A stretch of DNA of 63,463 bases, the filler included, from Reclinomonas americana ATCC 50394 (Eukaryota): the NCBI GenBank assembly GCA_048213135.1. It is 6 parts of 2 records of this genome, joined end to end, with 100 filler letters (N's around TTAATTAATTAA, not from the genome) between each part and the next. Parts side by side here need not be neighbours in the genome. Positions count along the whole stretch, not along the records: positions 1 to 18,446 come from PS015253.1; 5 more parts are not named here. One strand, given 5' to 3'. Positions 1 to 40,494 of the stretch are shown piece by piece. Both the position numbers and the translations under genes were made by a program. The notes under the pieces were generated by a model. It was not told where the DNA came from, made no database searches, and worked only from the letters and a program-made list of their open reading frames with translations. Each line of letters begins with the position of its first letter. The stretch's first letter is position 1.

Positions 1-60
1 CCCGTTACCCGTACCGTACCGTACCGTCTACGTCGTCGCGCGTGGGCGCGCGCGCGCGTA

Positions 61-194
<134 letters not shown>

Positions 195-197
195 CGT

Positions 198-3100
198 ATG
201 GTTTACCGTCTGTCTCGCAGAGCTCGTAAGCGTGTGGCATTGCTCATCGGTAATTCTTGCGATGGCAAGGGAGCGTACGAGTTGCTGAGGAACCCACCGA
301 ATGATGTGGGTACGTGTGCACATACATAGCCGCGCGTCTGCCGTTCACCGTCGGGTTCAATCTCTTCTCTCGCACACGCATCCGCAGACCTGTTGCAACC
401 AGTTCTTGTGGACTGCGGCTTCCACGTTTGCTCGCCTGTCGATGTGAGGGGCGATGACATGCACTCCGTGGTAAATGGATTTGTGGGCGAGTTTGTAAAT
501 GAGGAGTGCGAATGCGTCTTGCTGTTCTTTTCTGGTCACGGTCTCGCGGTTGACGGAGACCTGCTTCTCCTCCCGAGTGATGCCAACAGCATTTCCAATT
601 CACGCGTGGTGAGTTTTTTCAGTAGCTGGACTTTCTTGCTGCTGAGCAGTTGTTGACAAGCTCAATCGCAGACGAGTGGCGATAAATCACTGGCGCTTCT
701 CGGGTACTGCATGCCGCAACTGTGTAGCAATCGGTCAGAGCACACGGTTGTGATTATGTTGGCGAACTGTTGCCGCTCTGTCAACAGGTGCGCATTGATT
801 CAGAGAAGCACCACCTTGCAGTGTTAATTAACGCAGTCTTTGCGCGCTCGATCACAGCACTGTTCGCTCAATCTCGAGAGGCAATCTGAAGGAGAATGTG
901 TTCGTCGGCTTTGCGTGCGACCACGACTGGAAAGCGCACGAGGGCAGTGAGTACGCGAAGATCGACTGCATTTGTCGACTGCTGGTGCTAATTTTTCCTG
1001 CTGTATTAGCATTTGCATCGCCGTATGTGCGGGCGCTTGTGCACGCCATTCAGGAGCATGGGCATTTACCGCTGCCGGTGTGGCACGACAAAGTTAATTA
1101 TCGGTTAAGAGATCTTCGACAACAATCTTTTGAACAAGAGTCTGATCATCACCAGCGCCTACGGGAGAAGGAACTGGATGAGTTTCGATTAAGTTTGCGA
1201 CCAGGTAAGCAACAACGTGACCAAGCTATTTGTCTTGAGTGGCGTTGCTTTTGTTTGCGCAAAATGCGCCATTAGTTTGTTGGATGTGATGCTTCTGTCT
1301 GCGAACTTTCAATGTGTACTGTGTGATCACTTGCTTGCGGTGGCGAAGGCAGCTAACTCTCTTACGTTGTAGGTGTACACAAGTTGTGCATTCGGGAGCT
1401 GGCGTTCTACCAGCAAGATGAGAGCGTGCGCAAGGACATGCAGATGTATGTACCACTGTTGTGCTCTCGTGAGCGTGACATCTCGTCGAGAGACAAGATG
1501 ACGGATCTGCTGACGGAGGCGTATGCCTTCCTGTCTGACACGAATACCAGTCACCGTGTGCTGGTGCTCTTCGGCAACAGTGGAGCCGGCAAGACCACCA
1601 CCATGTCAGTGTTGGCTGAACGAGCATGGCGACAATGGCAGACGAGAGAGAGCAGACGAGTGCCTGTGCGTGTTCCTCTTGGTGCGCTGCGCAATGCCGA
1701 TGAGCGACTGTTGGAAGAGGCGCTGGAGCGACTGTCACCCGAGTTGGGATTCAGTGAGTCGGATGTGCGACGGTTGAAGGAGGAACCACTACTGTTGTTG
1801 CTTGACGGGTACGATGAGTTGTACCGTGGTGTGAATCTGTTTGGCAAGAACCAGTTGGATGCATCAGTGTGTCGCGATGTTAAGGTGATAATCACCTGTC
1901 GCGGCGACTACGCTCTGACGGCACTGGGTGGCGTGACGGAGTATCAGCGGTTCTTTGCTCCAGTTGATGCGCGAGGACAGTTGTGCGCTGAGCAGCTGAT
2001 GGAGCGACACATCGCACCGTTCGACAAGGTGCAGATTAAGGAGTACTTTGGGCGGCTGGTGCAAGTGGGTGGTGAAGATGACGACGGTGAAGTGCGATGG
2101 TCAACTGCCAAAGAGTACATGGATGCACTGAAGATTGTGCAAGGACTGGATGCACTGGTGTCGAATCCATTCCTGCTGGCAGTTGTGGCTCGTGTGTTGC
2201 CGCAGTTGGTGACGAGTGGTGTGCAGCGACCGACTCGGTGTGATGTGTTTGATCGATTCATTCGACAGTGGATTGTGAGAGAGCGGGAGAAGAAGACGCG
2301 TCTCGGTGCGGAGCGTGTGCCGACTGAGAAGACGTGTCTCGCGTTCTGCGAGGGACTGGCACGGCTGATGCATGAGAGGAATATGGTGCGTGTGTCTGTG
2401 ACGGAGGGTCAGTCAGGTTATGACGGTGGAGGGGACGAGGATGAATTTGGTGGTGCGCCACTCGCCTTGCGACGAATGGAAGACGAACCATTTGACAAGT
2501 TCCTCGGTCACAAGAATCAGTATGTGCGAGTGTGCTGTCCGATTGTGCGACGGTATGCGACGACGCAGTGGGGATTTGTACATCTGTCGTTGCTTGAGCA
2601 CTGTGTGGCACGGCATGTGTTTGCATGGGAGACGTGGGATGAAGAGAGGAGATTGACGATGGAAGATGTGCAGCAGCATGTGCTGGCAGTACGACTGCTG
2701 AATGATCGACCGTCGTTGGTGGGGCAGATGGCCGAAGTGGTGCGACGGTCTCCTCGACTGCAAGCAAAACTGTGGGAGGTGATTGAGTTGTCGCGAGAGG
2801 CGGATGAGGAGCGATTGGTGACAGCGTCGGCGAATGCAGCAACGGTGTTGTGTGTGGCACAAGTGTCGTTCAGTGGGCGCGACCTGTCGGGCGTGAGAGT
2901 GAGACGTGCAGATTTGAGGAATGCGGTAATGCACAAGACGGTGTGGAGGGGAGCGGATATGCGAGGGGTGAATGTGTGCATGGCGTATGCGAGGGAGGCG
3001 GATTTCAGAGGGGCTGATGTGACGGATGTGAAGTGGCCGAGGAGGCCGATGGAGGGGCACATTGACAAGATGACGGGAGTTGCCATTACCCCAGATGGTC

Positions 3101-5748
3101 AGCACGTTGTGAGTGGTGGTTGGGACGGAACATTAAGAGTGTGGTCCCTTGCGAGCGGAACCGAAGTGCGTCGATTGGAGGGACACACGGATGTGGTGCG
3201 ATCTGTTGCCGTCACTCCCGATGGTCAGTGCATCGTGAGTGGCAGTTGGGACAACACTGTGCTAATTTGGTCACTGTCGAGTGGAGAGGAAGTGCGACGA
3301 TTGGAGGGACACACGAGTGCGGTTCTTGCAGTGGCAGTGACACCTGATGGGCAGCACATCGTAAGTGGTAGTGAGGACACGACAGTGCGCGTGTGGTCTG
3401 CGACGAGTGGAGAAGAAGTGCGGCGATTGGAGGGACACACTTCATGGGTGTCGTCCGTCGCCGTCAGTTCCGATGGTCAGCACATCGTAAGTGGAAGTGA
3501 TGACGAGACAGTACGAGTGTGGTCACTCGCGAGTGGAGCGGAAGTGCGACGGTTGGTGGGGCACATTCGAGCGGTGACCTCTGTCGCCATCACTCGTGAT
3601 GGTCAGCACATTGTAAGTGGGAGTGAGGACTGGACTGTACGGGTGTGGTCTGTGGTGAGCAGAGAAGTGCATTGCTTTGACTCTCAAGGTGGTGCTGTAC
3701 ACTCTGTCGCCATTTCTGCGAATGGTGAGTACATTGTGTGTGGGTGCCTAGACGGCACCCTTCGAATGCTTTCGTTTGCAAGTGGAAAGGAAGTGCACAG
3801 ATTCAAGAGACATGAACGCAAAGAAGAGTTTGGATTCGCTGATATCGCGATCGGCGAAGAATTCTCTGTGGCTATCACTCCCGATGGCCAGCAAGTAGTG
3901 AGTGGGAGCGGGGACGGCAGGGTGAAAGTGTGGGCAGTAGAAGGTGGAGAGGAAGTGCTACGGCTGGAGGGGCACGGCAGAGGGGTGTTTTCTGTCGTCA
4001 TCACTCCCGATGGTCAGCACATTATCAGCGGTAGTGACGATAGAACGGTGCGGTTGTGGTCTGAGGCAAATGGTGACGAAGTTCGACGGTTGGAGGGGCA
4101 TGCTGGTTCCGTGTATTCTGTCGCTGTCACTCTCGATGGTCAGTACATTTTGACTGGAAGTGAGGATCATACGGTGCGAGTGTGGTTACTGACAAGTGGG
4201 AAAGAGATGCGGCGACTGGAAGGACACGTTGGCAAGGTGCGGGCTGTTGCCGTCACTCCCGATGGCCAGCATATTGTAAGTGGGAGTGAAGACATGACAG
4301 TGCGAGTGTGGTCACTGGAAAGAGGAGAAGAAGTGCGACGGATGGCGGGACACACCAAGACGGTGCTGTCTGTCGCCATTACTCCCAATGGCCAGCATGT
4401 TGTGAGTGGAAGCAAAGACATGACAGTGCGAGTTTGGTCACTGGCTAGTGGGGAAGAAGTGCGACGGATGGCGGGACACACCAAGACGGTGCTGTCTGTC
4501 GCCATTACTCCCAATGGCCAGCATGTTGTGAGTGGAAGCAAAGACATGACAGTGCGAGTTTGGTCACTGGCTAGTGGGGAAGAAGTGAGGCAGTTCACAG
4601 GACACACTGACGCAGTGCAGTCAGTTGCCGTCACTCCCGATGGTCAGCACGTTGTGAGCGGTAGCGACGACAAGACAGTGCGTATGTTATGTCTGGTGTG
4701 TGGTGTAGAAGTGCAACGGGTAGCGGGACACTCTGGCGCGGTGTCGTCTGTCATCGTCGCCCCTAATGGTCGGCGCATCGTCACAGGGAGTCAAGACACG
4801 ACGGTGCGAGTGTTCTATATGAACGAAGTGCAGAGATTGCTTGGGCACAGAAGCAAGGTCCAGTGTGCAGCAGTGTCTTCTGATGATCAGCTTCTTGTGA
4901 GTGGGAGTCGCGACAAGACGGTGCGCATATGGTCTGTTGCAGCTGGAGTGGAAGTAAAACGGTTTGCCGGACATACTGGGTGGGTGATGTCGGTTGCCGT
5001 CACTCTCGACGGCCAGTATGTTGTGAGTGGCAGCTTTGACATGACAGCTCGAGTATGGTCGGTTGTTAGTGGAAAAGAAGTGCGGCGGTTGTTGGGACAC
5101 TCTGGGGCGGTTCTGTCGGTTGCCGTCACTCTCGACGGCCAGTATGTAGTGACTGGCAGTTTCGACAACACAGTGCGAGTGTGGACTTTGGCAAGTGGCG
5201 AAGAAGTGCGACGTTTGGAGGGGCACACTTACGGTGTGCCGTCTGTTGCCGTCACTCCCGATGGTCAACACATTGTAAGCAGTAGTTACGACAACACAGT
5301 GCGTGTGTGGGCACTACCGACGGGAGAACAATTACGACAGTTCGTTTCCGAAACTGATTGCTGGTTCACATCAATGTCCATCACAGACGATGGTGCGAGT
5401 GTTGTTGCAGTCATGGAAGATCACAGCGTGAGCATGTGGTCGCTTCGTGACGGCATTGAGAAGCGATGGAATCCTGGAAATAAGTTGCTTTCATCCGCGC
5501 GATCCTGCAACTTTGGCATTCATACATGTGGCGACGCAGTTGTCGTGGTTCCCCGCAATCAACGTGGAGAGCTGCTCGAGCGCATCTTCGGGTCGTTCTT
5601 GGCAGACTATACCGACGCATTGGGGACGGACGAGTGGGTACCCGGGTGGTCAGTAATTGAACCCTTCGGAGAAGACCGACTGCGAACCTCTGTGAGACCG
5701 TCACGTGAACCTCATTTATTCAGGAGCGCCTTCAATGTCTTGCGGTGA
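198..5748 (+). CDS. Caspase-like (peptidase C14)-NACHT-pentapeptide-WD40 STAND/NLR-like protein, ~1702 aa, 6 exons (198-309, 388-608, 672-787, 858-946, 1010-1204, 1373-5748)
   Basis: All five introns are GT..AG and phase-compatible; the exons sum to 5109 nt with no internal stop. C14 motifs: KRVALLIGNS..LRNPPNDV, LFFSGHG (His 537-539), LLLLPSD, IMLANCCR (Cys 771-773), SPYVRAL. NACHT motifs: Walker A GNSGAGKT (1573-1596), Walker B LLLLDGYDE, VIITCR, SNPFLL, FVHLSLLE. Then pentapeptide repeats (RDLSG/ADLRN/ADMRG/ADFRG) and ~19 WD40 repeats from 3049. An additional exon upstream of 198 cannot be excluded. Confidence 0.88.
4327..4587 (+). repeat. Two identical 126-bp WD40-encoding units in tandem
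   Basis: 4327-4452 and 4453-4578 read identical by eye (EEVRRMAGHTKTVLSVAITPNGQHVVSGSKDMTVRVWSLASG). Confidence 0.9.
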
Positions 5749-6378
5749 CGGCGCCCGTACAGCTACATCAGCTGGCGAAGGACTCTTTTCGTCAAGTTCA
5801 TCCCACTTGCTGCGAAAGGAAACGGAGAGGAAGAGAGAGTCAATGAACCAAGAAGCTGCAGACTAGAAAACAAAGAAATGACATCCAGAAGTTGCTGATA
5901 CGTACACATAAACATTCACTCTCACACACACTCACACCCACCCACACACGCACGCGCGCGCAAACAACGAGACTGCATACCTATCCAAGTAAAGACCAAG
6001 CGTTCCTGCGTGCACGCGCACACAGTGAGTGCATTTGTCTCTCTCTCCCTCTTCCTCCTTCCTCTCCCTCCCTCCCTCTCCTCTCCCCCCTCCCTTCATC
6101 CGCGATGCTCACCTCCGATGATTCCCGTGATTCCTGCATGCATACACATGCATCAGTTGTCTCTCTCTCACACACACGCACCCCCACGCACACCTCCCCC
6201 ATCACTCACCCAACGCCAGTCGCGCCTGCTTGCTCAACGAGAGATACCACTTGGCAACGCCCGACATTCTCCCTCCTCTCACTCAACAACACAAGCAAAT
6301 GAAAATGCGACAACTCTGTGACAGGATTTGTTCGACGAAGTTCACTCGGCCTCATCCACCCCCTCTCTCCCTCTCTAT

Positions 6379-9300
6379 CTATGCACTGCGGAACAGCTCG
6401 CGGAACTGCGGATACTGCTGCTCAATCGCATCAATCGTCTTCCGGATGTTCTCGAGCTTGGCATTCGGTACCTCCTTGGCCAGATCTGCACCCGCGCTGC
6501 TGAGCNNNNNNNNNNNNNNNNNNNNNNNNNNNNNNNNNNNNNNNNNNNNNNNNNNNNNNNNNNNNNNNNNNNNNNNNNNNNNNNNNNNNNNNNNNNNNNN
6601 NNNNNNNNNNNNNNNNNNNNNNNNNNNNNNNNNNNNNNNNNNNNNNNNNNNNNNNNNNNNNNNNNNNNNNNNNNNNNNNNNNNNNNNNNNNNNNNNNNNN
6701 NNNNNNNNNNNNNNNNNNNNNNNNNNNNNNNNNNNNNNNNNNNNNNNNNNNNNNNNNNNNNNNNNNNNNNNNNNNNNNNNNNNNNNNNNNNNNNNNNNNN
6801 NNNNNNNNNNNNNNNNNNNNNNNNNNNNNNNNNNGGAAGAGCGAAGGGGAAAGCAAGAGGGGGAGAGCGACAGGGGGAGAGCGAGAGGGGGAGACGAGTG
6901 GGGGAGCAGCGAGTGGGGGAGAGCGAGAGGGGGGTGCGAGAGGGGGAGAGCGAGAGAGAGGAGGGAGCAGCGAGAGGAGAAAGCGAGAGAGGAAGCCACA
7001 AGAATAAGAATCGTCTCTTCTCCATCATCACTATCACTCCTCATCAATTAACGCAACCCCAAAGCAATCGGCCGCTCGCTGTCACTGGCGTTGATGCGCT
7101 CAATCGACTTGAAGACCTCCTCCGCGGCGCGAATCAGGTATTGCGGCAGGCGCATCTTGGCACTGAAACGAGACTGCAATCCCAGAGTCGGCATCTGTTG
7201 CCAAGGGACACAAGTTGCTGATTGCACGCACCACATAGGATTCCGTGGCCAGCGAATCCGCAATCTTCGCGGGTCCAGTCTCCACCGCCTCGGGGGCGCC
7301 CGGCACGTCGTCGTCCTTCATCGCCGCTCGCACCTTGGTCAGCACTTGCGAGAAATCGCGCTTCTCAATGTTGGACAGGGCGCACATTTCTGTGACGCAA
7401 ACGGGTAAGGGGAAGGGGGCTAACTGATCCTGGTGCTCGTTCGTCTTCTGCTCACCCCCCCTTCTCGTCTTTCCTCCTGTGCACATTCTCCGTTCTTCTT
7501 CTCAATCCCTCTTCTCGTCATGCACATGTTCTCACAACTGCTATCATTATCAACTTGCGTGTCTTCTTCGCCTTCTTCTGCATCTGTAATTGTTGCTCAT
7601 CAATATCATCTTCTTCGCTTTCTTCTCCTGTAAATATTCTCCCTCTTGCCTAATCATCTTGTTCTTCGTCTTCTTCGCTTCTTCCTCCTGTGCATCTGCA
7701 TGTCGTGCATGATTATCTTCTCAGTCTCTCACCTTCCTCCTGCATATGTTCACCTTATTGCTCATCGTCATCATTCTCTTAGCCTTCCTTTTTCTTCTCA
7801 TTCATGCTGTACATCATCATCGTTTCAATCTCTCGCCTTCCTCCTACGCATATTCACCTTCTTGCTCATCGTCATCTTCTTCGCCTTCTTCGACCTTCTT
7901 TCTTCTCTTTCATTCAGTACACCGTCAGCTTGTTCAACAATATCTTCGCCTTCTTCTGAAGGTCCTCCTCTGGCTTATCACCACCCCCTTCTCCATCATC
8001 GTCGCCCTTCTTCTGCATATGCTCTCCGTGCTCTCCATCTTCTCCGCTCTTCCTCCTTTCTGTACATTGCCATCTTGTTCATCATCACCCCGCTCATCTT
8101 CCTTCTCCCATTCTTCTTTCTCTTCCCCTTTCTCCCCTCTTCTCCCCCCACACACACGCACCCTTGATCGACCGCGTGACATTGTGCTTCCTGCACGCCA
8201 ACATCAGCAGCGTGGACACAATTGGCTTCAGCTGTCGCCTCTTGGCCTTGTCGGGCATGTTGAGGTTGATGAACTTGTCCAGCGCCTCCGCCTGCATGCA
8301 CAGATGAGGACACGAGCACACGCATGCACTCAAAGAAACTCAATTAAGCAGGCACACAGGCGCGCACACACAAATATCTACAGACGCCGCTATATCCACA
8401 TTTGTGCTTTCCAAACGGAACGAGTCCACGCGCACGCAAAACAACGTGCGCACACTCAATTAGAGACCTTGCGCGCAACTCACAACCTCCTCATCGATCT
8501 TCTCTTCTCTCAATACAAAGTCTCTCTCTTCGACTCACTACAGACTCTTTCTCTTCATCCCCATGTTCCTCTTCATCCCCATGCCCCTCCACGAACCCGC
8601 ACTGCATGGCGATGGAATAAGTCAGCAACACGCCCTCTCAAACAGGGACGACTTCTGCGTGCGCACCTTGCTGAGAAAACGATCCACGCTCCGCCACCGC
8701 ATTGATCTCCGACTCGGCATCCATGCGCAGCTTGTCCAGTTTGTTTCTCTGCGACGCATGATGAGCAAATAGCCTTCTCCTCCTCTCCCTCTCATCAACC
8801 CCACCGTGTTCTTCATCTGCGCGCGCGCCAACGCCGTCTTTGGTCCTCCCGTGATGCCGGTCGACAGGTCCTCCGGGTGCAGCGAGTCGGTGGCAGCCTG
8901 TGCACAAGAGATGTGAGATAGAAGCAGGATTCGACAGGGGAGCGGAATGGTACGCAACTCCCACACGACTCCTGTCTTCCTCCTCGTCAAAATTGCGCCA
9001 CTCTGGCCGCTCGTCAATCAGCGTGAAGGGTTGCACGGTGCCGCAGCGCAGGCACACGCTGTCGCCGTCCGATGCGCCTGCATGGTGGGGAGGGGGAAGG
9101 GAGAGGAGCGAGTGAGTCGAGTTGTCTGAGGGAGCGCTGTACACGCTCTCGCTCTGTGCGGATGCGTCAGTGCAGCTGTCACCAATGCATCGTGTATAGG
9201 ACTCTCAAGAGAGAGAGAGAATGGTGGGGAAGGGAGGCGAGACACCGCTTGTGAAGTGTGCAGCGAGTGAGTGCGAGTGAGACAAGTGCAGGCCATCAAG

Positions 9301-9703
9301 ATGTGCATCTTGGATTGACTTCATGAAAGGAAGAGAGATGTGAATAAGACAAGTGCAGGCCATCAAGAAGTGCATCTTGGATTGGATTCATGGAAGGGAG
9401 GGAGAGAGAGAGGGAGGGGGGGGGAGGGAGGGAGAGAAGGATGAGAAGAGAGGCTCAGTGACGTGTGCATCGAGTGATGTGTTTGCGAGACACGTGCAGA
9501 TCACCAGGACGTGCATGTGGGCTTGGACTCATGAAAGGATGAGAAGGAAGGAACGCTGAAAGAGAGAGAGAGAGCGAGAGGAAAGGAGTGTGCACATCCA
9601 GCACTTGTCTCACTCACACTCACTCGATGCAAACGTCACTCGAGGTGTCTCGCTCCCTCCTTTCTCTCTCTCTCTCNNNNNNNNNNNNNNNNNNNNCCTC
9701 CTC

Positions 9704-9786
<83 letters not shown>

Positions 9787-10040
9787 GCACACGTCACTGC
9801 AGACGTCTCGCCTTCCTTCTCTCTCCCTTCCCCCTTTACCCCTTTACCCCTTCCCCCTCTCCCTTCCCCCTTTTGCCTCGTTCCGCAACGTTCATCAAAC
9901 TCCGTGTACCCACACAACGTACACCTCTCCTCTCTCAACAACTCCAACTCATGATCCACACCCGCCGTCGCCGCAGCACCACCCGCCCGCGCAGGCGCTC
10001 TCATCGCCGGAGGACCCATTGACGAAGAAGAAGAGGCCAT
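6379..10040 (-). CDS. Transcription initiation factor IIB-family protein (multi-exon, one internal gap)
   Basis: Spliced zinc ribbon CTLCGYTEFDER/ASDGDSVCLRCG (intron 9889-9078), B-reader IDERPEWRNF..DRSRVG, cyclin-fold LLMLACRKHNVTRSIKEMC, second repeat SRFSAKMRLP. Stop at 6379 after RELFRSA. Confidence 0.8.
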
Positions 10041-10701
10041 TCTCAGCTCTCTCACACAACAACTTGCAATGTCAAACACGAATGGGACACATGCACAGGT
10101 AGTTTGACGTCACACTCTCTCTCCTCGAACACCCCCGTCAAACACCTATAATCACCTGTTCCCCTTTGTGCACTTGCTGCCTTTGCAGCTTGCATTTCTT
10201 GCGCAAGAGCGTAGTCCGATATCCTCGACGTTCGACGTACGCGTCGAGTCATAATCAGCGCGCTCAATAAAACATCGCCCAGTTGCATTATCAACAAACA
10301 AAACACTTCATTACCACATGCGACACATGTCCGCAAATCCCTTGCTGGCAATGACCTGGGCACTCCAACAAAACAAAACACTTCGAATTCTTTCAGTCCA
10401 AAAATCCCTTGCATTGCCAACGATGACCAAGGCACCAACTACCATTGTCTTCTCCAAACAGCCATCTTCCCTTAAGCTTCCAGGACGCACAAGCAATCGC
10501 GTGCTGGCTGGTGTGGTCCAGGACGTCGACTTCGAATATTAATTCATGCCGCAAAATGATTCAGCCACAAAACACACAACCTCTTCTCCAACAGCCATCT
10601 TTCCTTTCAGCAGACATATGTATATGTAAAGGCTTTGCACAACCAGCCCATTCTTCTCTCTTGTCCTTCTCCTGCATGTCCTCCCTTCTCCCTTCTCCCG
10701 G

Positions 10702-12318
10702 ATGTCCAACAACGAACCCCCTCTCCCCCCCTCCCTCCTCTCCCCGCTCCTCCACGCCACCTCCACCTACGACGCCCACGACTTCACCCTCGCCGCCACC
10801 CTCCTCTCCTCCTGCATCACCGCCCTCCGCGAGGCCGGCCACGGCGACCACGAGCACACCCTCCGCGCCTCACACACGCACGGCCTCGCACTCCTCTCCA
10901 CTGGCGACTATGCACAGGCAATCACCGTGCTGCAAGAGACACTGGAGAGGCGGCATCGCATCGACGGACCGGATCATCGCGCCTCACTGCTGGTGGCCGG
11001 CGACTTGGGAAGTGCATTGTACACATGCGGTGGTCGTGTGCTGGAGGCAGTTGCGGTGCTGCGGGACACAGTGGAGCGACAGCAGCGCGTGTTCTCGGTG
11101 CACGTGGAGGACGAGGAGGCGCAGGCACTGAATACGTTGCATGACTTGGCGCTGGCGGTGGAGGCGAGCGGGGATCGCGTGGCGGCGATTGCCATCAATC
11201 GGGATGTGCTGCGGCGGCGTGCGCAGCTGTTGGGCGACGATCACCCGCTGACCATGGTCACGGCGCATAACTTGGGCGTGAGCTTGTCGCGCGAGGGAGG
11301 CGAGTGGAGGGAGGAGGCGTTGCGCGTGTTGCAGGTGACCATGACGCGTCGGCTGGGCGTGCTGGGTGCGGACCACCAGCACACACTGTTGACGGCGGCC
11401 GAGGTTGGCACAGCGTTGCTGGAGCAGGGGCAGCACGCCGACGCTGTAAACGTGCTGCGTGTGGTCTACGAGCGGCAACTCGCGCTGTTGCCGCCGTACT
11501 GTCGCGATGTGCTCGTCACGCATCGCTCGCTGGCCGAGGCGCTGACGGCCGTGGTCAATGTCGACGATCCGGTCACGAGTGGCGAGGCGGTGCGGGTGAG
11601 TCGCGAGCTGGTGCATCGTGAGCATCGCTCGGTCGGCCCCGATCACGTGCAGGCGCTGATGAGTGCGCACAATTGCGCGGTGCTGCTGATGCGCTTCCCC
11701 GAGCACGCCCCGGAGGCGCTGCTGCTGTTCGAGGACACGCTGGAGCGGCGGAGGAGGGTGCTGGGCGTCGACGATCGCTACACCCTCAGCACGGCCACGC
11801 ACTTTTGCATCCTATTACGCGGGTTGCCGGAGCGGCATGCGGAGGCGGTGGAGTTGCTGCGCGACACCATGCAGCGCCAGCAGAGGGTGCTGCCGGAGAA
11901 CGACGCCGACACGCAGCGCACCACCAATTTCCTCTGCCTCGCCCTCAACGAGGCGGGTCGGCACGAGGAGGCCGCCGTGCTGTGTCGGGACTTGCTGGCG
12001 TGCCGGCGGCAGGTGCTGGGCGACGACCACGTGGACACGCTCACCAGCGCCTTTAATCTGGCACTCTTTCTGCGCGGATCCGCCGAGGCCACGCAAATGC
12101 TCGAGGACACACTGGAGAGATCGCGGCGCGTGTTTGGCGAGAATCATTGGCTGACGGCGAGTGTGGTGCGGCAGTTGGAGGGGGTGGCGGTGGTGGGAGA
12201 AGGAGGAGGGGAAGGAGGAGGGGGAGGAGGAGAAGAGGGGGTGGAGAATGAGAGGGTGGAGGAAAGAGGGGGTCCGGAGGAGGAGGAGGGGGGAGAGAAC
12301 GCGGGCGTGGATGTATGA
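10702..12318 (+). CDS. Intronless TPR-repeat protein (kinesin-light-chain-type TPR_10/TPR_12 repeats), 538 aa
   Basis: Repeated ~42-45 aa units such as RRRAQLLGDDHPLTMVTAHNLG and RRQVLGDDHVDTLTSAFNLA; acidic/Gly-rich tail. Confidence 0.85.
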   Translation: MSNNEPPLPPSLLSPLLHATSTYDAHDFTLAATLLSSCITALREAGHGDHEHTLRASHTHGLALLSTGDYAQAITVLQETLERRHRIDGPDHRASLLVAGDLGSALYTCGGRVLEAVAVLRDTVERQQRVFSVHVEDEEAQALNTLHDLALAVEASGDRVAAIAINRDVLRRRAQLLGDDHPLTMVTAHNLGVSLSREGGEWREEALRVLQVTMTRRLGVLGADHQHTLLTAAEVGTALLEQGQHADAVNVLRVVYERQLALLPPYCRDVLVTHRSLAEALTAVVNVDDPVTSGEAVRVSRELVHREHRSVGPDHVQALMSAHNCAVLLMRFPEHAPEALLLFEDTLERRRRVLGVDDRYTLSTATHFCILLRGLPERHAEAVELLRDTMQRQQRVLPENDADTQRTTNFLCLALNEAGRHEEAAVLCRDLLACRRQVLGDDHVDTLTSAFNLALFLRGSAEATQMLEDTLERSRRVFGENHWLTASVVRQLEGVAVVGEGGGEGGGGGGEEGVENERVEERGGPEEEEGGENAGVDV

Positions 12319-13400
12319 ATGGAGTAATGTTTTGTTGAAAGCGTCTGGATGTGTGCCGTACAGTTTTTCTGATCATGGGCAGTGTTCTTGAGTCCTGTGC
12401 TCCCTTCCACCTTTCCGTATCTTTTTCCTCACCGTTGCGTACATCAAAGCAATGTTTTCATTCACCTTGCGTCTTTCTTGTCGAGGAGGGGCGAGACATT
12501 GTGGGCGAGGATGCGAATGGAGCGATATTTTGTGGAGGTCGTGGTGTTGCACGCAGTTTCTTGGATCTGATCGCTTCTCTGAGCTGTGTTCTTGAGTCTT
12601 GTACTCCCTTCCTCCTTTTGCTTCTCATTCCTTTCTCTCTTGTGCGCCAAAGCACTATCTTCTTCGCCCTCGCGTCTTGCCTCTCGACGAGGGGGGAGAC
12701 AATGTGGGTGCGGATGCAAATGGAGCGATATTTTGTGGAGGTCGTGGTGTTGCACGCAGTTTCTTGGATCTGATCGCTTCTCTGGGCTGTGTTCTTGAGT
12801 CCTGTGCTCCCTTCCTCCGTTTTTGCTTCTCATTCCTCGCCCTCTTGTACGCCAAAGCACTATCTTCTTCGCCCTCGCTGTTTTCTTCACGAGGAGGGGG
12901 GAGACAATGTGGGTGTGGATGCAAATGGAGCGATATTTTGTGGAGGCCGTGGTGTTGCACGCAGTTTCTTGGATCTGATCGCTTCTCTGAGCTGTGTTCT
13001 TGAGTCCTGTACTCGCTTCCTCCTTTTTGCTTCTCATTCCTCACCCTCTTGTACGCCAAAGCACTATCTTCTTCGCCCTCGCGTCTTGCCTCTCGACGAG
13101 GGGGGAGATAATGTGGGTGCGGATGCAAATGGAGCGATATTTTGTGGAGGTCGTGGTGTTGCACGCAGTTTCTTGGATCTGATCGCTTCTCTGAGCTGTG
13201 TTCTTGAGTCCTGTACTCGCTTCCTCCTTTTTGCTTCTCATCCCTCACTCTCTTTGTGCGCCAAACCAGTGTCTCATCCACCCTCGCTGTTTTCTTCTCG
13301 AGCGGGGAGATAATGCATCCGTGGACGTGAATGGTGGTGTTTGTTTCGTCGCTCCGGCTCCTCTTCTCATTCCTCACCCTCTTATACGCCAAAGCACTCT
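12280..13400. repeat. ~204-bp tandem repeat, about 5-6 copies
   Basis: GTGTTCTTGAGTC recurs at 12382, 12586, 12789, 12994 and 13198; copies at both ends are degenerate. Confidence 0.85.
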
Positions 13401-13981
13401 TCTCTCTCCTCACTGTCCGTCCATGACTTCCTGTCTGTCTCCTGCAATATCTTCCATCGCTCAGCGAGCAGAGCATGGCTCTTTCCTTCTCGCGCTGGCA
13501 GTACAGTCCTCAAGCATCGCGATCCTTGAAAGTTAAGCGATGCCTTGACGTGATCCAAAGGTCGGTACTGGTGATTGTCTGGCTGTCAAATGCTGCACGA
13601 GGAGCAGCGCATGAGATGGACGTTGAAAGATGGTGTGGAAGCGCATGCCGAAGCACCTGTTGGAGGCTGCTATTCCGAAGCCTGCCGGTGCCTTCCAGTT
13701 GTGTGGCCACTCTCCAAAGAGATGCATGGCAAACCCTTGACCTCCTTCCTCCCTGATTGACTCCGCCACTCGAGCTCACCCAGCGGCAGCTCTGTGCTCT
13801 TCATGGCCACCCTCCAATCGGTTTAAAGTTCACTAGTCTCGGGGCGTGGACCGTTGACCCTTGGCAGAGCTCCTGGGGCGCGCTAAAGCGCATCAAACCC
13901 CCTTCAAGTACCAGAAACGTCGCGATCGCGATCCACTCTGTCCCACTTCCTCGTTCTCCGACTTGTCTCCACCACCAAAGC

Positions 13982-14844
13982 ATGCACATCCTCGTCTCTC
14001 GCGTCCCTACTCGCCTCCTCCACTCACCTCTCTCCTCCTCTTCTTCCTCTTCCTCCTCCACCGTTCCATGGCTGATCGCCTTTGATCTGGAGGGCACACT
14101 TTTGACAACTTCCGATGCTGCTCCCTCTCACAAGCCGCCCTCCTTCTCACTATCGCTGTCGCCCACTGACTATCGCACGGTTGCGTTGATGTGTGTGTTT
14201 GCGTGAGAGAGAGAAAGATGTTGATCGCTTGTCATTGCAGTTGTCTCCGACATCGATCGATGTGTGGCTTCGGTGAGAAGCGATCGCCCTTCCTGCTCTT
14301 CTGCACAGCCCCTGACGAGTGCGTTCTCTCTCTCCCTGTGTGTGAGTCACAGTCATGGTCTGTGCGAGTGGTTGCACGGGAGTTGGGCGTCGACTGTGAA
14401 CGCTCGTTTCGCCGTGCTCTGTGCATCGCCCGACGGTACGCTGTGATGTCGATCGCACGCAGCGCCAGTGCTGTCAGTCTCACTGACGTATGGCAGAGTT
14501 TTGTCGGCGAGTGGTCGCCGAGTTGGATCCGCACCAGCGACTCTTTGACAAGGTCCTCTCCCGCGATTCGTGCAGGTATGCCGTCGTCGTTCCGCACCCT
14601 CTGATGCGTATCGCCCATCGAGTGCAGATTGGAAGGGCTGCAGCGCGTTCGCGATCTAATGGCCCTCCAGCACCCGCTCGATCGCGTCGTGTATGTCACC
14701 GCCGATCCACTGGCGTGCCCGGCGGAGCAGCGATCGCGCATGCTGCTGGTGCCTCCCATGTCGGGCAACGCGGACGACGATGCGCAGGCGTTGCTCGAGC
14801 TTAGCAGTCGCCTGTATCATCGTCTTGCGCAAGAGGAGCAATGA
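13982..14844 (+). CDS. FCP1/NIF (SCP/TIM50-like) HAD-family domain protein with degenerate active site; start uncertain
   Basis: Exons encode WLIAFDLEGTLL, VVAELDPHQRLFDKVLSRDSC and RVRDLMALQHPLDRVVYV..LVPPMSGNADDDAQALLEL, paralleling the NIF motifs DLDETL, LDP..F..RLFRESC, KDLSxLGRDL and GDxxDxELL. Confidence 0.65.
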
Positions 14845-14897
14845 AAACGCGACGACATTTGAGGGATTTCAGAGAAAGAGAAACAAGTCAGCATTCT

Positions 14898-17800
14898 TCA
14901 CTGCGCAGCAGCAGCAGCAGCAGTTGCTGGAGGTGGTGCTTGAGGTGTTGCCGTTTTCGCCGCCTGTCCGCCAGCGGGTGAGGCGGTGGCCGGTCTCCTA
15001 ACGGCTGCCGAGGGCGGCGGACTGCGTTGACGGGTCGGCGAGGCGGCGGAGCGTGGCGGTGACTTGTTCTTGGCCGCGTAGTCGCGATAGTACTGCTGCA
15101 GCGAGTCGGACGACTCGTTGGCCGTCTCGTCGCCCTCCTTTAGTGCACAAATCGAGTCAGGGAAATGCATGCACGAAGACGTACAAGGGACGGAAGCGCA
15201 ACTTTGTGCAGCCGCGGTCGAAAGTCGAGCTTTGGCTGCCACTTTTCGCGCATCTTCTCCAACTCGGCTTGCCGCTTGGTCAGATCGGCGGCGGCTAGTC
15301 GCTCGAAGACGCCGCTGGCGGGCTCTGGGGAGCGGGGGAAGGGAGGGTGAGGGAAGGGAAGGGTTGGGGAAAGGGAGTGAAGGGGAAAGGAGAAGGGGAG
15401 AAGGAGAGCAGCGCGGTGAGGAAAACGGAAGGGGAGAGGAAGAATGGGGAAAGGGGAGAAGGGGAAGGGGAGAAGGGGAGCAGCGCGGTGAGGAAAACGG
15501 AAGGGGAGAGGAAGAATGGGGAAAGGGGAAAGGAGAAGGGGAGAAGGGGAGCAGCGCGGTGAGGAAAACGGAAGGGGAGAGGAAGAATGGGGAGAGGGGG
15601 AGAGAAGGAGAGGGGGAGAGGGGGAGAGGATGAGGATAGATGGAGAAAGAAAGTGTGCGACTGGAGATATGTTCACGAATCTTCTGCCTTTCTCTGACAT
15701 GCATTGTTTGACGACTTGTCCCCAAAGGCGTGAGTGAATGGGAGCTCTTTTTGTCTCGCTCACTCAATCTCTCTTGCTATAGTGTCAAGATGCAGACGCA
15801 CAAATGTGAGAGTAAGAAGGAGCTCGCTCCAGTCCACAATCAACAAATCTCTCTTCGCCCGTCCCTGACTAACGCACTCAGTCGCGTGCTCGCAGTCTCT
15901 CTCTCTCACACACGCATTCTTTCTCTCCTTTTGCTCCAATCTCCCGCCAAAGGCACAGAGAGCAGCGAAAATTCTCTTCTCCTTCTCCACTCATCTGTCT
16001 TTCTCCTGGCAAATCTGTGCCTCTTGCGACGCAGCCACATGTACAGCAGAACGAGAGTAAAGCAACACACCTCGCGCGCCCGTGACTTGCACTCTCTCTT
16101 TCTCTCTCTCTCTCTTCCTATTGACATTCTCTTCCCGCCAGACTGACGGTAAGGTAAGAGTGCAGAAACCGATCTCTCTTCGACCGTCACTCACGCTCTC
16201 TCCCTCTCTCTCTCTTTTCTGTATTCGCGGATGCACGATACAATGAGAACGCAACAAAAGCTCTCACTTCCCCCGCTCTCTTTCGCTCTCCTCATTCATG
16301 CTCCGTTCCATCCCGCCAGAGGCACGGAAAGATGTGGATACTCTGTCTCTCTCTCGCACNNNNNNNNNNNNNNNNNNNNNNNNNNNNNNNNNNNNNNNNN
16401 NNNNNNNNNNNNNNNNNNNNNNNNNNNNNNNNNNNNNNNNNNNNNNNNNNNNNNNNNNNNNNNNNNNNNNNNNNNNNNNNNNNNNNNNNNNNNNNNNNNN
16501 NNNNNNNNNNNNNNNNNNNNNNNNNNNNNNNNNNNNNNNNNNNNNNNNNNNNNNNNNNNNNNNNNNNNNNNNNNNNNNNNTGTGAGATATCCAAAAAAAG
16601 GGCGTGCGACCTGCGGTGGACGACGCAACTGATCGTACTCGCGCCGCAGCTTGGCCTCCTTGACGCGATCAATCGCCTCGCTCATGCACTCCAACTTGTG
16701 CAACGCATCCTCCCACTTGTTCGTCGGCGTCACCACCACTCCGCGCACATTAATCTGACTCGCCGACACATTAAAGGGAAAGTACAGCGGGGTGTCGGGG
16801 TTCAGTCGCGCCAATCGCTTCTGCTTCTTCTTGACCGAGGCCGGCGGCTGCACGGGGTCCGAGTCGAGAACTTCTTGCACGAGACTCGGTCCGCGGCGGG
16901 TGGTGCCGGAGGAGGAGGCCTTTTTCTGTGGCAGGGAAAGGGGGAAGGGAGGGAGAGAGAAGGGGCGATGAGGGAGGGCGAAAGAGAGAATGAGGGGGGA
17001 GGAGGCAAAAAGAGATGACGAGTGGGTGTTGAATCGCCAGCGAGTGATGGAGAAAGAACAAATGAACGAAGTATCGAGAACAGACGGCCAGGTAGAGGAC
17101 ACGGTGAGAACTCAAGGAACTGAGGCGGAAGCTGCAGCGAGAACACACGACCCGGAAACAAGTGAACACGAGAGAAAGGCCATGGTTGCGGAGAAAGAGG
17201 AGCCGAAGCAGCAAAGGAGGACAGCGAGAGGAGAAGCGATTGCAGAAGGAACAGAATAGAGTGCACAAGCAACTGGAGAAGAACAACAAGAGGGACGGAA
17301 CACAGTGCTCGGCGAGCAGCAAAGATCGAATGCCGCTCAAGCAGCGAGTACCCAGTGAAAAAGAACAGAGGGCACAAGCTGCTGGAGAAGAACAACAAGA
17401 GAGTTATGCGCATGGAGGAGCGTGGGAAACGGAACAGAGTGCACAAGCTGCTGGAGAAGAACAACAAGAGAGCTATGCGCATGGAGGTGAGTGGAAACGG
17501 AACAGAGTGCACAAGCGACTGGAGAAGAACAGTTATGCGCATGGAGGAGCGTGGGAAACGGGACACAGAGTGCACAAGCTGTTGGAGAAGAACAACAAGA
17601 GAGTTGCGCGCATGGAGGTGAGTGGGAAACGGAACACAGAGCGCACAAGCTGCTGGATAAAACAACAAGAGAGTTATGCGCATGGGAGATGGAATAGAGT
17701 GCACAAGCCACTGGAGAAGAACAGCAAGAGAGTCATGCGCATGGAGGTGAGTGGGAAACGGAACACAGAGTGCACAAGCAACAGAGAAGAACAGCAAGAG

Positions 17801-18288
17801 AGTTATGCGCATGGAGATGAGTGGGAAACGGAACAGAGTGCACAAGCTGCTGGAGAAGAACAGTTATGCGCATGGAGGTGAGTGAGAAACGGAACAAGAG
17901 TGCACAAGCGACTGGAGAAGAACAGCATGAGAGTTATGCGCGTGGGAGATGGAATAGTGTGCACAAGCAACAGAGAAGAACAGCAAGAGAGTTTAGAGAG
18001 GAGATGAGTGGGAAGCGGTTCGCAAGTGAGAGCAAGGGGGAGAAGAACAGCAATAGAGGGCAGTAGCGAGAGAGAATGGAGAGCGGGATGATTGTAAAGA
18101 GAAGAAACAAGAGTGGAGAAGCCAAAACGCACTGATGGTGACGCGCTGCCGTTTCCTGCCTGTGCATGAGGAGGCGACGAGTCCTCACTGGGCGCAGACG
18201 CAGGAGCAGCAGCTGATGTCTTGTGCTGTTGTTGTTGTTGTTGAGGAGACATAAAGGCAGAGGGAGCTTGTGAGGGCGGCGACCACAT
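14898..18288 (-). CDS. Hypothetical multi-exon low-complexity/coiled-coil protein
   Basis: Protein-like exons MWSPPSQAPSAFMSPQQQ, KWEDALHKLECMSEAIDRVKEAKLRREYDQLRRPPQ, GVFERLAAADLTKRQAELEKMREKWQPKLDFRPR and SLQQYYRDYAAKNKSPPR with splice-like borders. Gene boundaries and linkage of the exons are inferred. Confidence 0.5.
17250..18010 (+). repeat. ~60-70-bp minisatellite, roughly 10 imperfect copies
   Basis: Recurring GAACAGAGTGCACAAGC(T/G)(G/A)CTGGAGAAGAACAACAAGAGAGTTATGCGCATGGAG. Confidence 0.85.
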
Positions 18289-18363
18289 CAATGAGTCAGT
18301 GTCAGTGGGTGCGTCGGCACCACCCTGTAATGAGAGAGAGAGAGAAGAGGGGGAGTGAGTGGC

Positions 18364-18446
<83 letters not shown>

Positions 18447-23739: not shown

Positions 23740-25315
23740 TCAACTCCACCAAAAGGACACTGAAAAGCTCACTTGCAGCGAGCGTACATAGTGCCAATAG
23801 TGCGGTGGCATGTAGAGCATATCCCCACGCTCTAGTGTGCACTCCCAGAACGGCACGCCGGCAAAGAGCGGGAAGGCGACGTCGACGTCGGGGTTCGCGA
23901 CGTCGATCAGGCTGGTGTTGTGCAGCATGCTGTCGGGGCGCGGGTACAGGCGCGTGGAATGTGCGGGTGAGTAGATGCGAATGAGCTTGCTGCCGACGGC
24001 TTGGCAGAGGAGGTTGTGGTGCGGGTCGTGGTGGAGGGGGGAGATGGTGCCGCGCGGTCCGAACCAGGCGTTGCGGGTGAAGACGGCACCGGTGCCGAGG
24101 GCGCGGCAGTAGGGCGGAGTGACGATGTCGTGCTGTAGTCGGGGGATCTGATCAAAGAGCGTGTGCTGCGCGAGGTAACCGCGTTCCTCGTTCGGGTGCA
24201 GCACGAAGATATCGACAAAGTCGAGCAGCGGAATCAGTCGCTGCGACCAGCCCTCGGCGACGTAGTGTTGGCCGACCTCTGCGCAAATAGGCGATAGTGA
24301 GCAAAGTGGATACAAGGGCGGAGCGGCGGCTGCGAACAGACCAACGGGGACTGTGCGATGGCCGGCCACTCGTTTCAAGTACGCCATGTTGGCCCAGCTG
24401 TGGTCCGCCGACATGCACGGCCACTCCTGCATCGCTCGTGCACTATAAGCCATGATGCGCAGTGGGTGCCGGTGATGAGGCACGCCTCACCTGCATGCAT
24501 CCACGCAACAGCGCCGGTCGCATCGGCGTGAAACACTCCCTCTCAAACTCCTCCACCGACGGGCACTCCAGCACCAGCAACTCCAATCGCTCCGATCCAG
24601 GCGGCACTGGGAGCTCCACCTCTTTGTCCATCACGAACGAGTGAGCATCCAGGCGAAGAGTGGAAGACGAGACAACTGCACACCATCGCGCTCCAGACTG
24701 GCAATCTCCATTTTGTCTTCTTCTCCCCCTTGCGCATCGTCCTCGCGATTCGTATCGCGCAGCTCCTCCACCAGCTCCAACAGCTCAAAGGCCTCCTCGC
24801 GAAACATATTCGCGCCCATGATCAGCGCCATGTCAATCGTCCGCGAGACCTCACACAATCGATGCGAGTCAAAGCGATGCAATCGACCTGTGCGCCACGT
24901 GCTAAGAGAGAGACTCGGAAAGGTGAGAGGAGGAGAGAGAGAGACCTTGCTCCTCATCCATCAACAGCTCGATCTTGGCCAGTGCCAGCGAGGCTGCAGC
25001 ATACACATCTCGCCAGGCGACATTGACACGATGCCACACTCCCACATGCAGCTGCTCCCAGGCAAGGATCTGTGCCTCCACTGCACACTTGCGTGCTTCT
25101 CTCGGTTGGCCACGACGGTCAGTGAGCGAAGAGTGCACGCGTTGCAGGAGTGACACGACGAGTGTGCCGTATGACTCGGGAGGGCGCAGTTGCGCGAGGA
25201 GTGTGTCCCATTGGTGTTGCAGCTCGTCAGAGACTGTGTCAGTGGTGGTGTGGTGGGGGCGGTGGCCAGCTGGATGCAGTGTGAGGGTGCCGTGTGGGGT
25301 GTACTCCAGGTGCAT
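23740..25315 (-). CDS. JMJD5: JmjC-domain protein 5 (KDM8-like hydroxylase); start approximate
   Basis: AWEQLHVGVWHRVNVAWRDVY, GHRTVPVEVGQHY, GYLAQHTLFDQIP, NAWFGPRGTISPLHHDPHHNLLCQ, GDMLYMPPHYWHYVRSL..SFSVSFWWS. Confidence 0.9.
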
Positions 25316-33700: not shown

Positions 33701-35457
33701 TGTGGGTGGTGCGGCAAGCCGTGAATACGACGACGAGGAGGAGGAGGAGGAGGCTGTGGAGGATCCGTGGGGACATTGGAGGAAACGAGTGCAGGAGCTG
33801 AAGGATGAGGCGCAGTTGACCATTAGGTGGGTGCACACGCCAAGTCCAGAAACCTGTTACACAGACGCACGCGCACAAGCAATGTGCTCTCTCGCGCTCC
33901 ATTGTTTTGCTGCACTTGCACTCTTCTGCTTTCGCCGCACTTACTCGGTCTCACGCACTCGCACTTACACTCTCAACACTCACACAAGCGCAGTCATCCG
34001 CAGCCTCACGTAAGCACGCTTTACGCGAGCAATCCATTTCGTTCATTTCACCCCTCCCGTTCTCCGCCCTGTACCCTTCTTTGCCCTTCACTCCCTCTCC
34101 CTCTTGTCTCCCCGTTTACCCTCTTACCCTCCTGCGCCATTAGAGCGCTCTCTCACTCCCTACACAAGAGAGTGTTTTCGACGACTCCATGATGTTGGTG
34201 TTGCAACGTTGCTTGAGAGTCAGCTACTCTGATTGTTTTTCTCTCTCACTTTCTCTCTCTCTCTCTCTCACTCTCACTCTCACTCTCACTCTCTTCTCCC
34301 TTCCCCTCCCTCCCTTCTCCCTTCTCTCACCCCCACATCAGGGACTCCATCTTGGACACCGCGGAGCCATCACTGGCCGGTGCCTCGCAAGCCAGCATCA
34401 CTGTGGAGCGATGTTGGCGCAACTTTTGCTCCAAGGAGGTGCTGGGCGGTGACAATGGCTTCCGCTGTGAGGCCTGCGAAGACACGTTTGTGTTGACACC
34501 GGATACGAGACTATCGAATGCGACGCGGCAGATGACACTGCACTCGGCACCGTTGACGTTGACGTTGCATCTGAAGCGATTCGCCCACTCGGCGTACGGG
34601 TTCGAGAAGAACGACCAGTTTGTGCGTTTTCCCGAGTTCCTGGATGCGCGACCGTTCCTCGGTCCGCACGCGTCGCGCAGTCAGGCCCTGGAGTACAGGC
34701 TATACGGAGTGGTTGTACACAGTGGAAGTGCGTGGATGAGGGGAGGAGGAGGGAGAGGAGGCTGTGGCTCATCTTTTGTGGACAGGTCTGCACGGTGGTC
34801 ACTACACGTGTTTCATTCGACGACTCGACCTCGACGCCATGCTGGTCCGCGCACCGGGGGAGGAGGACGACGCCGGTGCGGGCAGCGGGTTTGTGGAGGA
34901 AGCCGAGGAAGGAGCGTCAGGATCGGCCGATCCCAGGCCACGTGAGGGACCGTTGCACTTTGTGAGTCGCCGCGCAATGCGCATCTTTGTCAGTCTCTCT
35001 CTCTTCTCCTCCTCCTCCTCCTGGTCCCCATCTCTTCTCGTGTCTTTTTCCTCCTCCTCTTCCTCCTCCTGCTCTCCATTCCTTCTCTTGGTCCCCATCC
35101 CTTCTCTTGGTCCCCATCCCTTCTCTTGTCTATTTCCTGACTTTCCCTTCCCCTCCCTCCCCCCTCTCTCTCTTTCTCCTCCTCCTCCTCCTGCTCCTCT
35201 TGGTCTCCATTCCTCCTCTTGGTCCCCATCCCTTCTCTTGTCTTTTTCCTGACTTTCCCTTCCACCCTCCCTTCCCCCTCGCGCAGAACCTCCCCTCCCA
35301 ACACATCCTGCCCGACGGACAGTCCACCTACCGCTGGTCATACCCACCACCCCGCGGCGACTGGTTCTACTGCTCCGACTCCACCACACGCCAAGTCAAG
35401 ATCGACGAGGTGCTGGCGGCGCAGGCCTACATGCTCTTTTACGAACGCTTCCGGTGA
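29150..35457 (+). CDS. Ubiquitin-specific protease (peptidase C19, USP16/45-like catalytic domain)
   Basis: Cys box GLANLGNTCFFNS, QQDAQE, FGGEL, EPFLDLSL, LTLHLKRF, His box YRLYGVVVHSG/LHGGHY, WFYCSDS, AYMLFYERFR*. 5' exons 29150-29272, 29377-29389 and 29486-29533 join in frame. Confidence 0.9.
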
Positions 35458-40044: not shown

Positions 40045-40494
40045 NNNNNNNNNNNNNNNNNNNNNNNNNNNNNNNNNNNNNNNNNNNNTTAATTAATTAA
40101 NNNNNNNNNNNNNNNNNNNNNNNNNNNNNNNNNNNNNNNNNNNNGTAAGGTAAGGTAACGGTAACGTAAACGTAACCGTACGTACCGTACCGTACGTACC
40201 GTACGTCCGTCGGTACGTACGACGAGAGAGAAGAAGAAGAAGAGAGAGAGAAAGAGAGAGAGAGAGAGGAGACGAATGCGGCGTGCAACAACACTTTGTG
40301 GGGTGAGAAAGTGTGCATGCAACAAACGTACACCTCAAAACAAGCACAACACACAAAGGGAGCGCTTTGACTTACGACCCTCGATAAATGAAGCACTTGA
40401 GGTGTCCATGCAACAAATAAAACACTGCACAACAGGCAAAAAAACATAGAGAGAGAGAGAGAGAGAGACCCTTGCCCCCCTCAAGACACCCCAC

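Follow-up and report, generated by a model that had tools for sequence, protein, structure and literature searches.

A candidate intron-bearing gene joining a caspase-like protease to a NACHT-pentapeptide-WD40 receptor in the jakobid Reclinomonas americana

The Metacaspase-NACHT-WD40 architecture is widely distributed in bacteria, and its cyanobacterial version, which adds a pentapeptide stretch between NACHT and WD40, has been reported as confined to Cyanobacteria (Asplund-Samuelsson et al. 2012, PMC3501461). We analyzed a candidate gene of comparable design at 198-5748 on the plus strand of a 63,463-nucleotide stretch of DNA from Reclinomonas americana ATCC 50394 (GenBank assembly GCA_048213135.1). 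The whole stretch, which we call the window, consists of six parts of two records joined by filler, and positions 1 to 18,446 come from PS015253.1. A first-pass annotation had read the locus as a hidden caspase-like protease fused to a NACHT-pentapeptide-WD40 receptor. In our reading, to which we give a probability of roughly 0.7, it is one nuclear, intron-bearing gene for a C14 protease-NACHT-pentapeptide-WD40 protein of the STAND/NOD-like receptor (NLR) type, with a bacterial-type all-in-one layout and a protease that is likely to be activated by proximity. The predicted protein resembles the cyanobacterial Metacaspase-NACHT-Pentapeptide-WD40 orthocaspases in having the four modules, their identical order and the His/Cys dyad, a likeness of published architecture and not of compared sequences. 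It differs from them in that the gene is eukaryotic and has five spliceosomal-type introns, all of them in the protease part. The design is thus known from bacteria, and what is new is the protist host and the intron-bearing nuclear gene.

In animals, a STAND NTPase with a repeat sensor oligomerises and thereby activates a caspase-family protease through proximity, as in the case of Apaf-1 and caspase-9 and of NLRC4 or NLRP proteins and caspase-1. These apoptosomes and inflammasomes are built from separate polypeptides through CARD or PYD death folds, whereas the window protein would carry the protease in the sensor chain, and no death fold was detected in it. The first-pass description of a one-gene inflammasome or apoptosome is therefore a fair analogy but not a class membership: an Apaf-1-type protein has NB-ARC and an N-terminal CARD, while Pfam at E<=1 showed NACHT and neither of these two domains in the window protein, and PYD and LRR were not found in it either. 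Bacterial Apaf-1-like proteins with "caspase instead of CARD" have also been described. They share with the window protein the concept of a protease fused to a STAND NTPase and beta-propeller sensors, as a 'more direct' effector route, but they are orthologues of Apaf-1 (AP-ATPase/NB-ARC), whereas the window NTPase scores as NACHT and its host is a eukaryote.

Bacterial STAND proteins often have a metacaspase at the N-terminus, and the all-in-one form has been suggested as possibly ancestral (Dyrka et al. 2014, PMC4986451). Effector domains listed for NACHT proteins of bacteria include a caspase, and repeated transfer of NACHT to eukaryotes has been argued (Kibby et al., 10.1101/2022.07.19.500537). 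Among fungi, S8/NACHT/WD40 NLRs and CHAT proteases (HET-Q2-like, TPR-CHAT) are encoded beside gasdermin genes (Clave et al. 2022, PMC8851545). The fungal protease-bearing NLRs are like the window protein in being eukaryotic, in having a protease of their own rather than a recruited one and in their NACHT-WD40 core; they differ in that the described forms are S8/NACHT/WD40 or, for the characterised CHAT example TPR-CHAT, lack NACHT, and the available part of that paper mentions no C14-NACHT fusion. With the same four-module order published for cyanobacteria (PMC3501461) and protease-bearing NLRs published for fungi (PMC8851545), the novelty implied by the first-pass annotation was overstated. 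Our literature search, which left most subscription journals and supplements outside its range, found no description of a eukaryotic C14-NACHT-WD40 protein, and no literature pairing jakobids with NACHT was found in it.

Gene structure, the C14 domain and the junction with the NACHT exon

Joined together, the six exons (Table 1) gave 5109 nt in one frame of 1702 aa, with a sole stop at 5746-5748. The first-pass annotation had proposed that five small exons, missed or split among the open reading frames (ORFs), splice in frame to the large one, and we found a GT donor and an AG acceptor at every border it had named, so that the predicted model agrees with the proposal. If introns 1, 2, 3 or 5 were kept, each would bring an early in-frame stop. 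Intron 4 is in frame and free of stops. The reading frame would therefore tolerate it, and its removal is argued solely from the canonical borders and the better domain fit. Under a codon model trained on the large exon, the proposed frame of the small exons had a log-odds of +0.175 per codon; the two alternative frames came out at -0.27 and -0.26, and the introns at -0.10 to -0.32. The ATG at 198 is the likely start, since only a (GT)n tract lies upstream and no AG acceptor occurs between the tract and the ATG; further coding exons may lie beyond the window start, upstream of 198. We hold the predicted gene structure, together with the domain content described below, to be correct with high confidence.

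The upstream tract is a long (GT)n microsatellite at 62-191, broken by (GTT)4 and placed directly before the ATG. All five introns fall in the initial 1.2 kb, and no intron interrupts the other 4.4 kb of coding sequence. So strong a 5' bias could reflect loss of introns from the 3' part or the recent import of a NACHT-WD40 block that had none.

The motifs on which the protease assignment was first based were all present in the spliced protein, namely ALLIGN at residues 14-19, NPPND at 32-36, SGHG at 86-89 and NCCR at 143-146. Exon 2 by itself matched Pfam PF00656 (Peptidase_C14) at 29.2 bits (cut-off 21.4, E 9.3e-7) over profile positions 29-105 of 233, and exon 5 matched weakly (E 0.11) over positions 181-229, which is the C-terminal part of the profile and in the correct order. 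Reading exon 4 through intron 4 into exon 5, a stop-free stretch, gave E 0.24 with PF00656 and no gain over exon 5 alone. In NCBIfam, exon 2 found the model caspase_w_EACC1 ('caspase, EACC1-associated type') at E 4.6e-4, far below the model cut-off, and in the ESM Atlas all 30 of its 30 named matches were C14 sets (top score 0.94, 148 shared features), which we take as a lead only. No longer protein matched exon 2 at E<=0.01 in a set of 5.8 billion proteins, and the PDB sequences returned a single chance-level match (E 1.6).

We then compared the spliced protein with bacterial C14 domains. These were drawn from five bacterial genomes located by way of WD40 loci, of which four yielded 29 matches to Pfam PF00656. 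A profile from 20 bacterial C14 domains gave the first 260 residues of the spliced protein 20.6 bits, with residues 10-147 aligned, while 1000 shuffles gave at most 6.0 bits. With hhalign against 21 bacterial C14 domains, residues 7-213 were aligned at 94.4% probability (E 8.8e-8), which takes in all five small exons in their proper order, and none of 100 shuffles exceeded 2.6%. His88 and Cys145 were found in the catalytic dyad columns of the 20-21 bacterial domains. The residue two positions before Cys145 is Asn, where the bacterial domains mostly have Asp. The profile searches, with PF00656 over its cut-off, our own hidden Markov model (HMM), hhalign and the shuffle controls, bear out the earlier call of a C14-type domain, and the assignment of a predicted C14 protease with an intact His/Cys dyad is supported. 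By any test run, this predicted protease is not an animal-type caspase.

To examine the junction between the protease and NACHT parts, we aligned 154 relatives to the large exon, 152 of which matched at E<=1e-10. The alignment started at or before residue 21 of the large exon in 62 of the 152 NACHT relatives and at or before residue 10 in 13 of them. The first in-frame Met of this exon is residue 22, at which 40 of 68 relatives have Leu, and it is situated inside a conserved D-L-x-L-Y-I-P block, with D at residue 15 in 22 of 40 relatives and Y-I/V-P at residues 25-27 in 82, 84 and 74 of 89-90 relatives. An in-frame stop lies at 1354-1356, just ahead of the exon 6 acceptor, and there is no ATG from this stop to residue 22. 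Since homology extends upstream of Met22 and is preceded by that stop, the large exon cannot be the first coding exon and needs an upstream one. The caspase exons lie directly upstream and join the large exon in frame via the canonical GT..AG intron 5. We consider it likely that the predicted caspase exons are fused to the NACHT exon in one hidden gene.

Table 1. Coordinates of the predicted gene, its modules and other annotated features of the window
Feature	Position	Strand	Remarks
Exon 1	198..309	+	ATG at 198; first strand of the caspase-like domain with ALLIGN and NPPND; aligns to the start of C14 profiles
Intron 1	310..387	+	78 nt, GTACGT..CAG; retention gives a stop at 327
Exon 2	388..608	+	Core of the p20-like part; SGHG with His88 (codon 537-539)
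Intron 2	609..671	+	63 nt, GTGAGT..CAG; retention gives a stop at 654
Exon 3	672..787	+	Strand ending in NCCRS with Cys145 (codon 771-773); aligns to the D-x-C-H-S columns of bacterial C14 domains
Intron 3	788..857	+	70 nt, GTGCGC..CAG; one-base frame shift; retention gives a stop at 825
Exon 4	858..946	+	Strand after the catalytic Cys; within the hhalign alignment
Intron 4	947..1009	+	63 nt, GTGAGT..TAG; in frame, stop-free; retention adds 21 residues
Exon 5	1010..1204	+	C-terminal helices of the caspase-like domain and charged linker; within the hhalign alignment
Intron 5	1205..1372	+	168 nt, GTAAGC..TAG; protease/NACHT junction; retention gives a stop at 1273
Exon 6	1373..5748	+	4376 nt, intronless: NACHT, pentapeptide, WD40 array, C-terminal tail, TGA stop
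NACHT NTPase core	1555..1911	+	Pfam PF05729, E 6.2e-9, 36.3 bits, cut-off 26.7
Walker A GNSGAGKT	1573-1596	+	Residues 312-319; motif reading
Walker B LLLLDGYDE	1792-1818	+	Residues 385-393; motif reading
Pentapeptide-repeat stretch between NACHT and WD40	2863..2967	+	Pfam PF00805, E 2.2e-6, 27.5 bits, cut-off 20.2
WD40 array	3043..5499	+	~19-20 units (counted by eye), 42-residue period; Pfam PF00400, 18 stretches
Exact tandem duplicate of one WD40 unit	4327..4587	+	135 identical bases, offset 126
TPR-rich open frame	10630-12315	+	562 codons; TPR_12 / TPR_10, E 9.5e-38 and 1.3e-34; ~5 kb downstream of the gene
JmjC/Cupin_8 ORF	23743-24486	-	E 1e-35
Ubiquitin hydrolase UCH ORF	34217-34942	+	E 1.4e-14
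Serine carboxypeptidase S28 ORF	40338-41516	-	E 5.4e-42
EGF/DSL-repeat ORF	60761-61828	-	E 1.2e-30

The large exon and its relatives

The NACHT domain with intact Walker A and B motifs, the pentapeptide stretch and the WD40 array, all of them claimed from the first reading, scored over the Pfam cut-offs in our profile searches. The 14 regular WD40 units had a mean identity of 61% (range 43-100%), with variation concentrated at unit positions 7, 8, 9, 11, 27 and 29, which make up two x-conserved-x pairs, 18 residues apart. At these variable positions the nonsynonymous and synonymous proportions of difference (pN and pS) were 0.61 and 0.65, respectively, as compared to 0.17 and 0.68 at the other positions, indicating that the WD40 scaffold is under purifying selection and that the surface positions are under relaxed constraint. 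Positive selection on the surface positions was considered and is unsupported, pN being about equal to pS. Recent concerted evolution of the units is ruled out by a pS near saturation (~0.65), save for the one exact duplicate.

A comparable repeat system is known from Podospora, in which codons 7/9 and 25/27 of the HET-D/E repeats are under selection (Paoletti et al. 2007, PMC1805685). The allorecognition proteins HET-D and HET-E (NWD) share with the window protein a NACHT domain, WD40 units that are unusually alike and the same paired geometry of variable sites. Their N-terminal domain is HET and not a protease, and their repeats are near-identical in DNA by concerted evolution, whereas the window units are near synonymous saturation, the exact duplicate apart.

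The closest library match to the NACHT region was a 178-residue ORF derived from a Reclinomonas americana expressed sequence tag (EST; EukProt, P0005), with 89-90% identity over 150 residues. This match agrees with the protist host given in the first-pass annotation and indicates that the predicted gene or a close paralogue is transcribed in Reclinomonas americana. The first 22 residues of P0005 are like the +1 frame of the window immediately before the P-loop, and its other end is out of frame. Both termini have the look of frameshifted read ends, and the label of P0005 as a 'complete ORF' is probably an artefact of read errors.

In a representative library of 1.84 billion proteins, the NACHT region had 1502 matches at E<=1e-3. 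Among the matches listed, 149 besides the EST fragment were 27-39% identical to the window NACHT, and the named relatives were from Mortierellomycotina (Modicella, Linnemannia, Mortierella, Gryganskiella), two Cyanophora paradoxa proteins and IMG metagenome proteins. We scanned 31 relatives with Pfam and found ARM_5 at the N-terminus in 14, a protein kinase in one and TIR_2 in one; C14 was absent among the families listed for these 31, in listings swamped by WD40 models. The Cyanophora paradoxa relatives carry TIR_2, and one of them also has SAM domains.

Two relatives, P0145 and P0157, are 95% identical and both have the C14-NACHT-pentapeptide-WD40 order. In P0145 the C14 domain (Pfam E 4.7e-19, residues 125-344) is followed by NACHT, then by a pentapeptide-like stretch and finally by 15 WD40 units that are highly similar to one another. 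The two proteins thus have the same four-module order as the window protein, to which P0145 is 31% identical from NACHT through WD40, but their caspase domains have no detectable pairwise similarity to that of the window and they are not its nearest NACHT relatives, ranking 141 of 150 listed. We built a midpoint-rooted FastTree tree of 97 NACHT regions over 376 columns, for which we kept relatives with >=300 aligned query residues (127 of 231) and took the best 90 together with the labelled ones. In this tree the window NACHT adjoined a Cyanophora protein (support 0.86), P0145 and P0157 joined further out by two nodes (0.83), with the fungi in other parts of the tree. As read from these predicted proteins, there is a NACHT-pentapeptide-WD40 chassis with swappable N-terminal effectors, and a caspase-like domain occupies that place in a few lineages.

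Searches of the NACHT region against genome contigs gave no match, and those against metagenome contigs gave one weak P-loop match only. PADLOC reported nothing relevant, and tblastn found no paralogue of the gene inside the window. Two NACHT-WD40 proteins of Mycoavidus sp. (P0163 and P0174) sit among the NACHT-pentapeptide-WD40 proteins of Mortierellomycotina. Mycoavidus is an endosymbiont of Mortierella fungi. The placement hints at host-endosymbiont exchange of NACHT-WD40 genes, as proposed by Kibby et al. for another NACHT clade (10.1101/2022.07.19.500537). A metagenome-assembled genome of Lewinellaceae (genome G003, ~114-131 kb of the contig labelled C14) has five tandem ORFs of 1162-1409 codons (L023, L032, L035, L037 and L041), each of which matches Peptidase_C14. 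In L007/L023 of this genome the C14 domain is found close to the C-terminal end and the WD40 repeats are in a separate gene behind it, which amounts to the same modules in split form.

Proposed mechanism and alternative readings

By analogy with characterised STAND proteins, the WD40 propellers would keep the protein closed until a ligand is bound, and the NACHT module would then exchange nucleotide and oligomerise. The oligomer would bring the N-terminal protease domains together and so activate them by proximity, after which the predicted His88/Cys145 protease would cut its substrates; immunity or regulated cell death is the most plausible setting. On the same analogy, a self-contained sensor-protease is the natural mechanistic reading, and we put the chances of a role in immunity or cell death at about even. 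A further idea, which is tentative and to our minds rather unlikely, is that this jakobid, a free-living single-celled eukaryote from a deep-branching lineage, has a working one-polypeptide 'apoptosome' without death-fold adaptors. Its gene would then either have been imported from bacteria and domesticated, with five introns acquired later, or survive from a state ancestral to the adaptor-based caspase platforms of eukaryotes.

A number of observations weigh against one fused gene. All splice junctions, including the 1204/1373 join, were deduced from genomic sequence alone; intron 5 is the longest of the five, more than twice the length of the others, and an unspliced reading into it stops after 23 codons. 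Exons 1, 3 and 4 each lack a Pfam match of their own at E<=1, and that of exon 5 is weak. The EST-derived fragment covers the NACHT part only, is ~10% different and may come from a paralogue or from another strain. Most NACHT relatives have other N-termini, and phmmer with the window caspase part found no match in the 154 NACHT relatives. The bacterial C14 HMM matched at least 2 of 231 NACHT relatives (P0145 and P0157, both on one contig), which suggests that few members of this NACHT clade carry a C14 fusion; the true number may be higher, as the HMM is insensitive and scored P0145 at 15.5 bits as compared to 69.4 by Pfam. The deduced junctions, the length of intron 5, the other N-termini of the relatives and the low C14 count would suit two genes, a small metacaspase-like gene of exons 1-5 ending at the stop at 1273 and a NACHT-pentapeptide-WD40 gene behind it, with an in-frame join that is coincidental. 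A NACHT gene with a small private first exon within 1205-1372 is a further possibility. However, the homology of the relatives starts upstream of the first ATG of the large exon and the sequence from the stop at 1354-1356 to residue 22 offers no other ATG. Just ~160 nt would separate the stop of the first gene from the first ATG of the second, the canonical donor and acceptor preserve the frame, and the same fusion occurs elsewhere, both in P0145 and P0157 and in cyanobacterial proteins (PMC3501461). Taken jointly, the two-gene and private-exon explanations seem to us improbable.

One fused gene might also serve for something other than immunity or death, such as ordinary regulated proteolysis or signalling, or its product might be a non-catalytic scaffold as proposed for many orthocaspases. 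Non-metazoan caspase homologues often have homeostatic functions and an intact dyad is no proof of activity (Klemencic and Funk, PMC5756287), the variable WD40 positions indicate relaxed constraint with no demonstrable positive selection, and no gasdermin-like or other death effector was found among the 27 window ORFs of >=224 aa that we scanned. On the other hand, NACHT proteins of bacteria provide defence against phage (10.1101/2022.07.19.500537), those of fungi with WD40 repeats take part in non-self recognition (PMC1805685), and the variable pairs of the WD40 units share their geometry with the selected sites of the Podospora repeats, so that we see only a slim chance for this explanation. 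A decaying, non-functional copy (pseudogene) or an assembly artefact at the scaffold start is very unlikely. The gene does abut a (GT)n tract near the beginning of the window, the window is a draft with 22 N runs (5635 nt in all) and the exactly duplicated WD40 unit is possibly an assembly effect; yet the N runs all fall outside the gene, its spliced frame is open over 5.1 kb and free of frameshifts, both the catalytic and the Walker motifs are intact, the codon bias persists and pN is far below pS outside the variable WD40 positions.

The p20-only caspase homologues have been stated to carry extra domains only in the prokaryotic orthocaspases, the eukaryotic ones being simple (PMC5756287). 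A single intron-bearing C14-NACHT-pentapeptide-WD40 gene in a protist would, if true, be an exception to this statement. It would also offer a eukaryotic system for asking whether STAND oligomerisation activates a fused caspase-family protease, and it would supply one more case for the debate over repeated NACHT transfer from bacteria to eukaryotes. The principle has already been published for bacteria and, with other proteases, for fungi, so that a known class is extended and no new class is opened.

Other features of the window

Downstream of the gene the window holds a TPR-rich open frame (Table 1). TPR repeats are common in NLR-like proteins. An NB-ARC or NACHT module ahead of this frame was looked for in 14 upstream ORFs and none was found; an N run lies at 9677-9696. 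The remaining annotated ORFs of the window, with JmjC/Cupin_8, UCH, S28 and EGF/DSL matches, fit a eukaryotic nuclear region. The gene itself is followed by low-complexity DNA, C/T-rich and CA-rich, at ~5890-6200.

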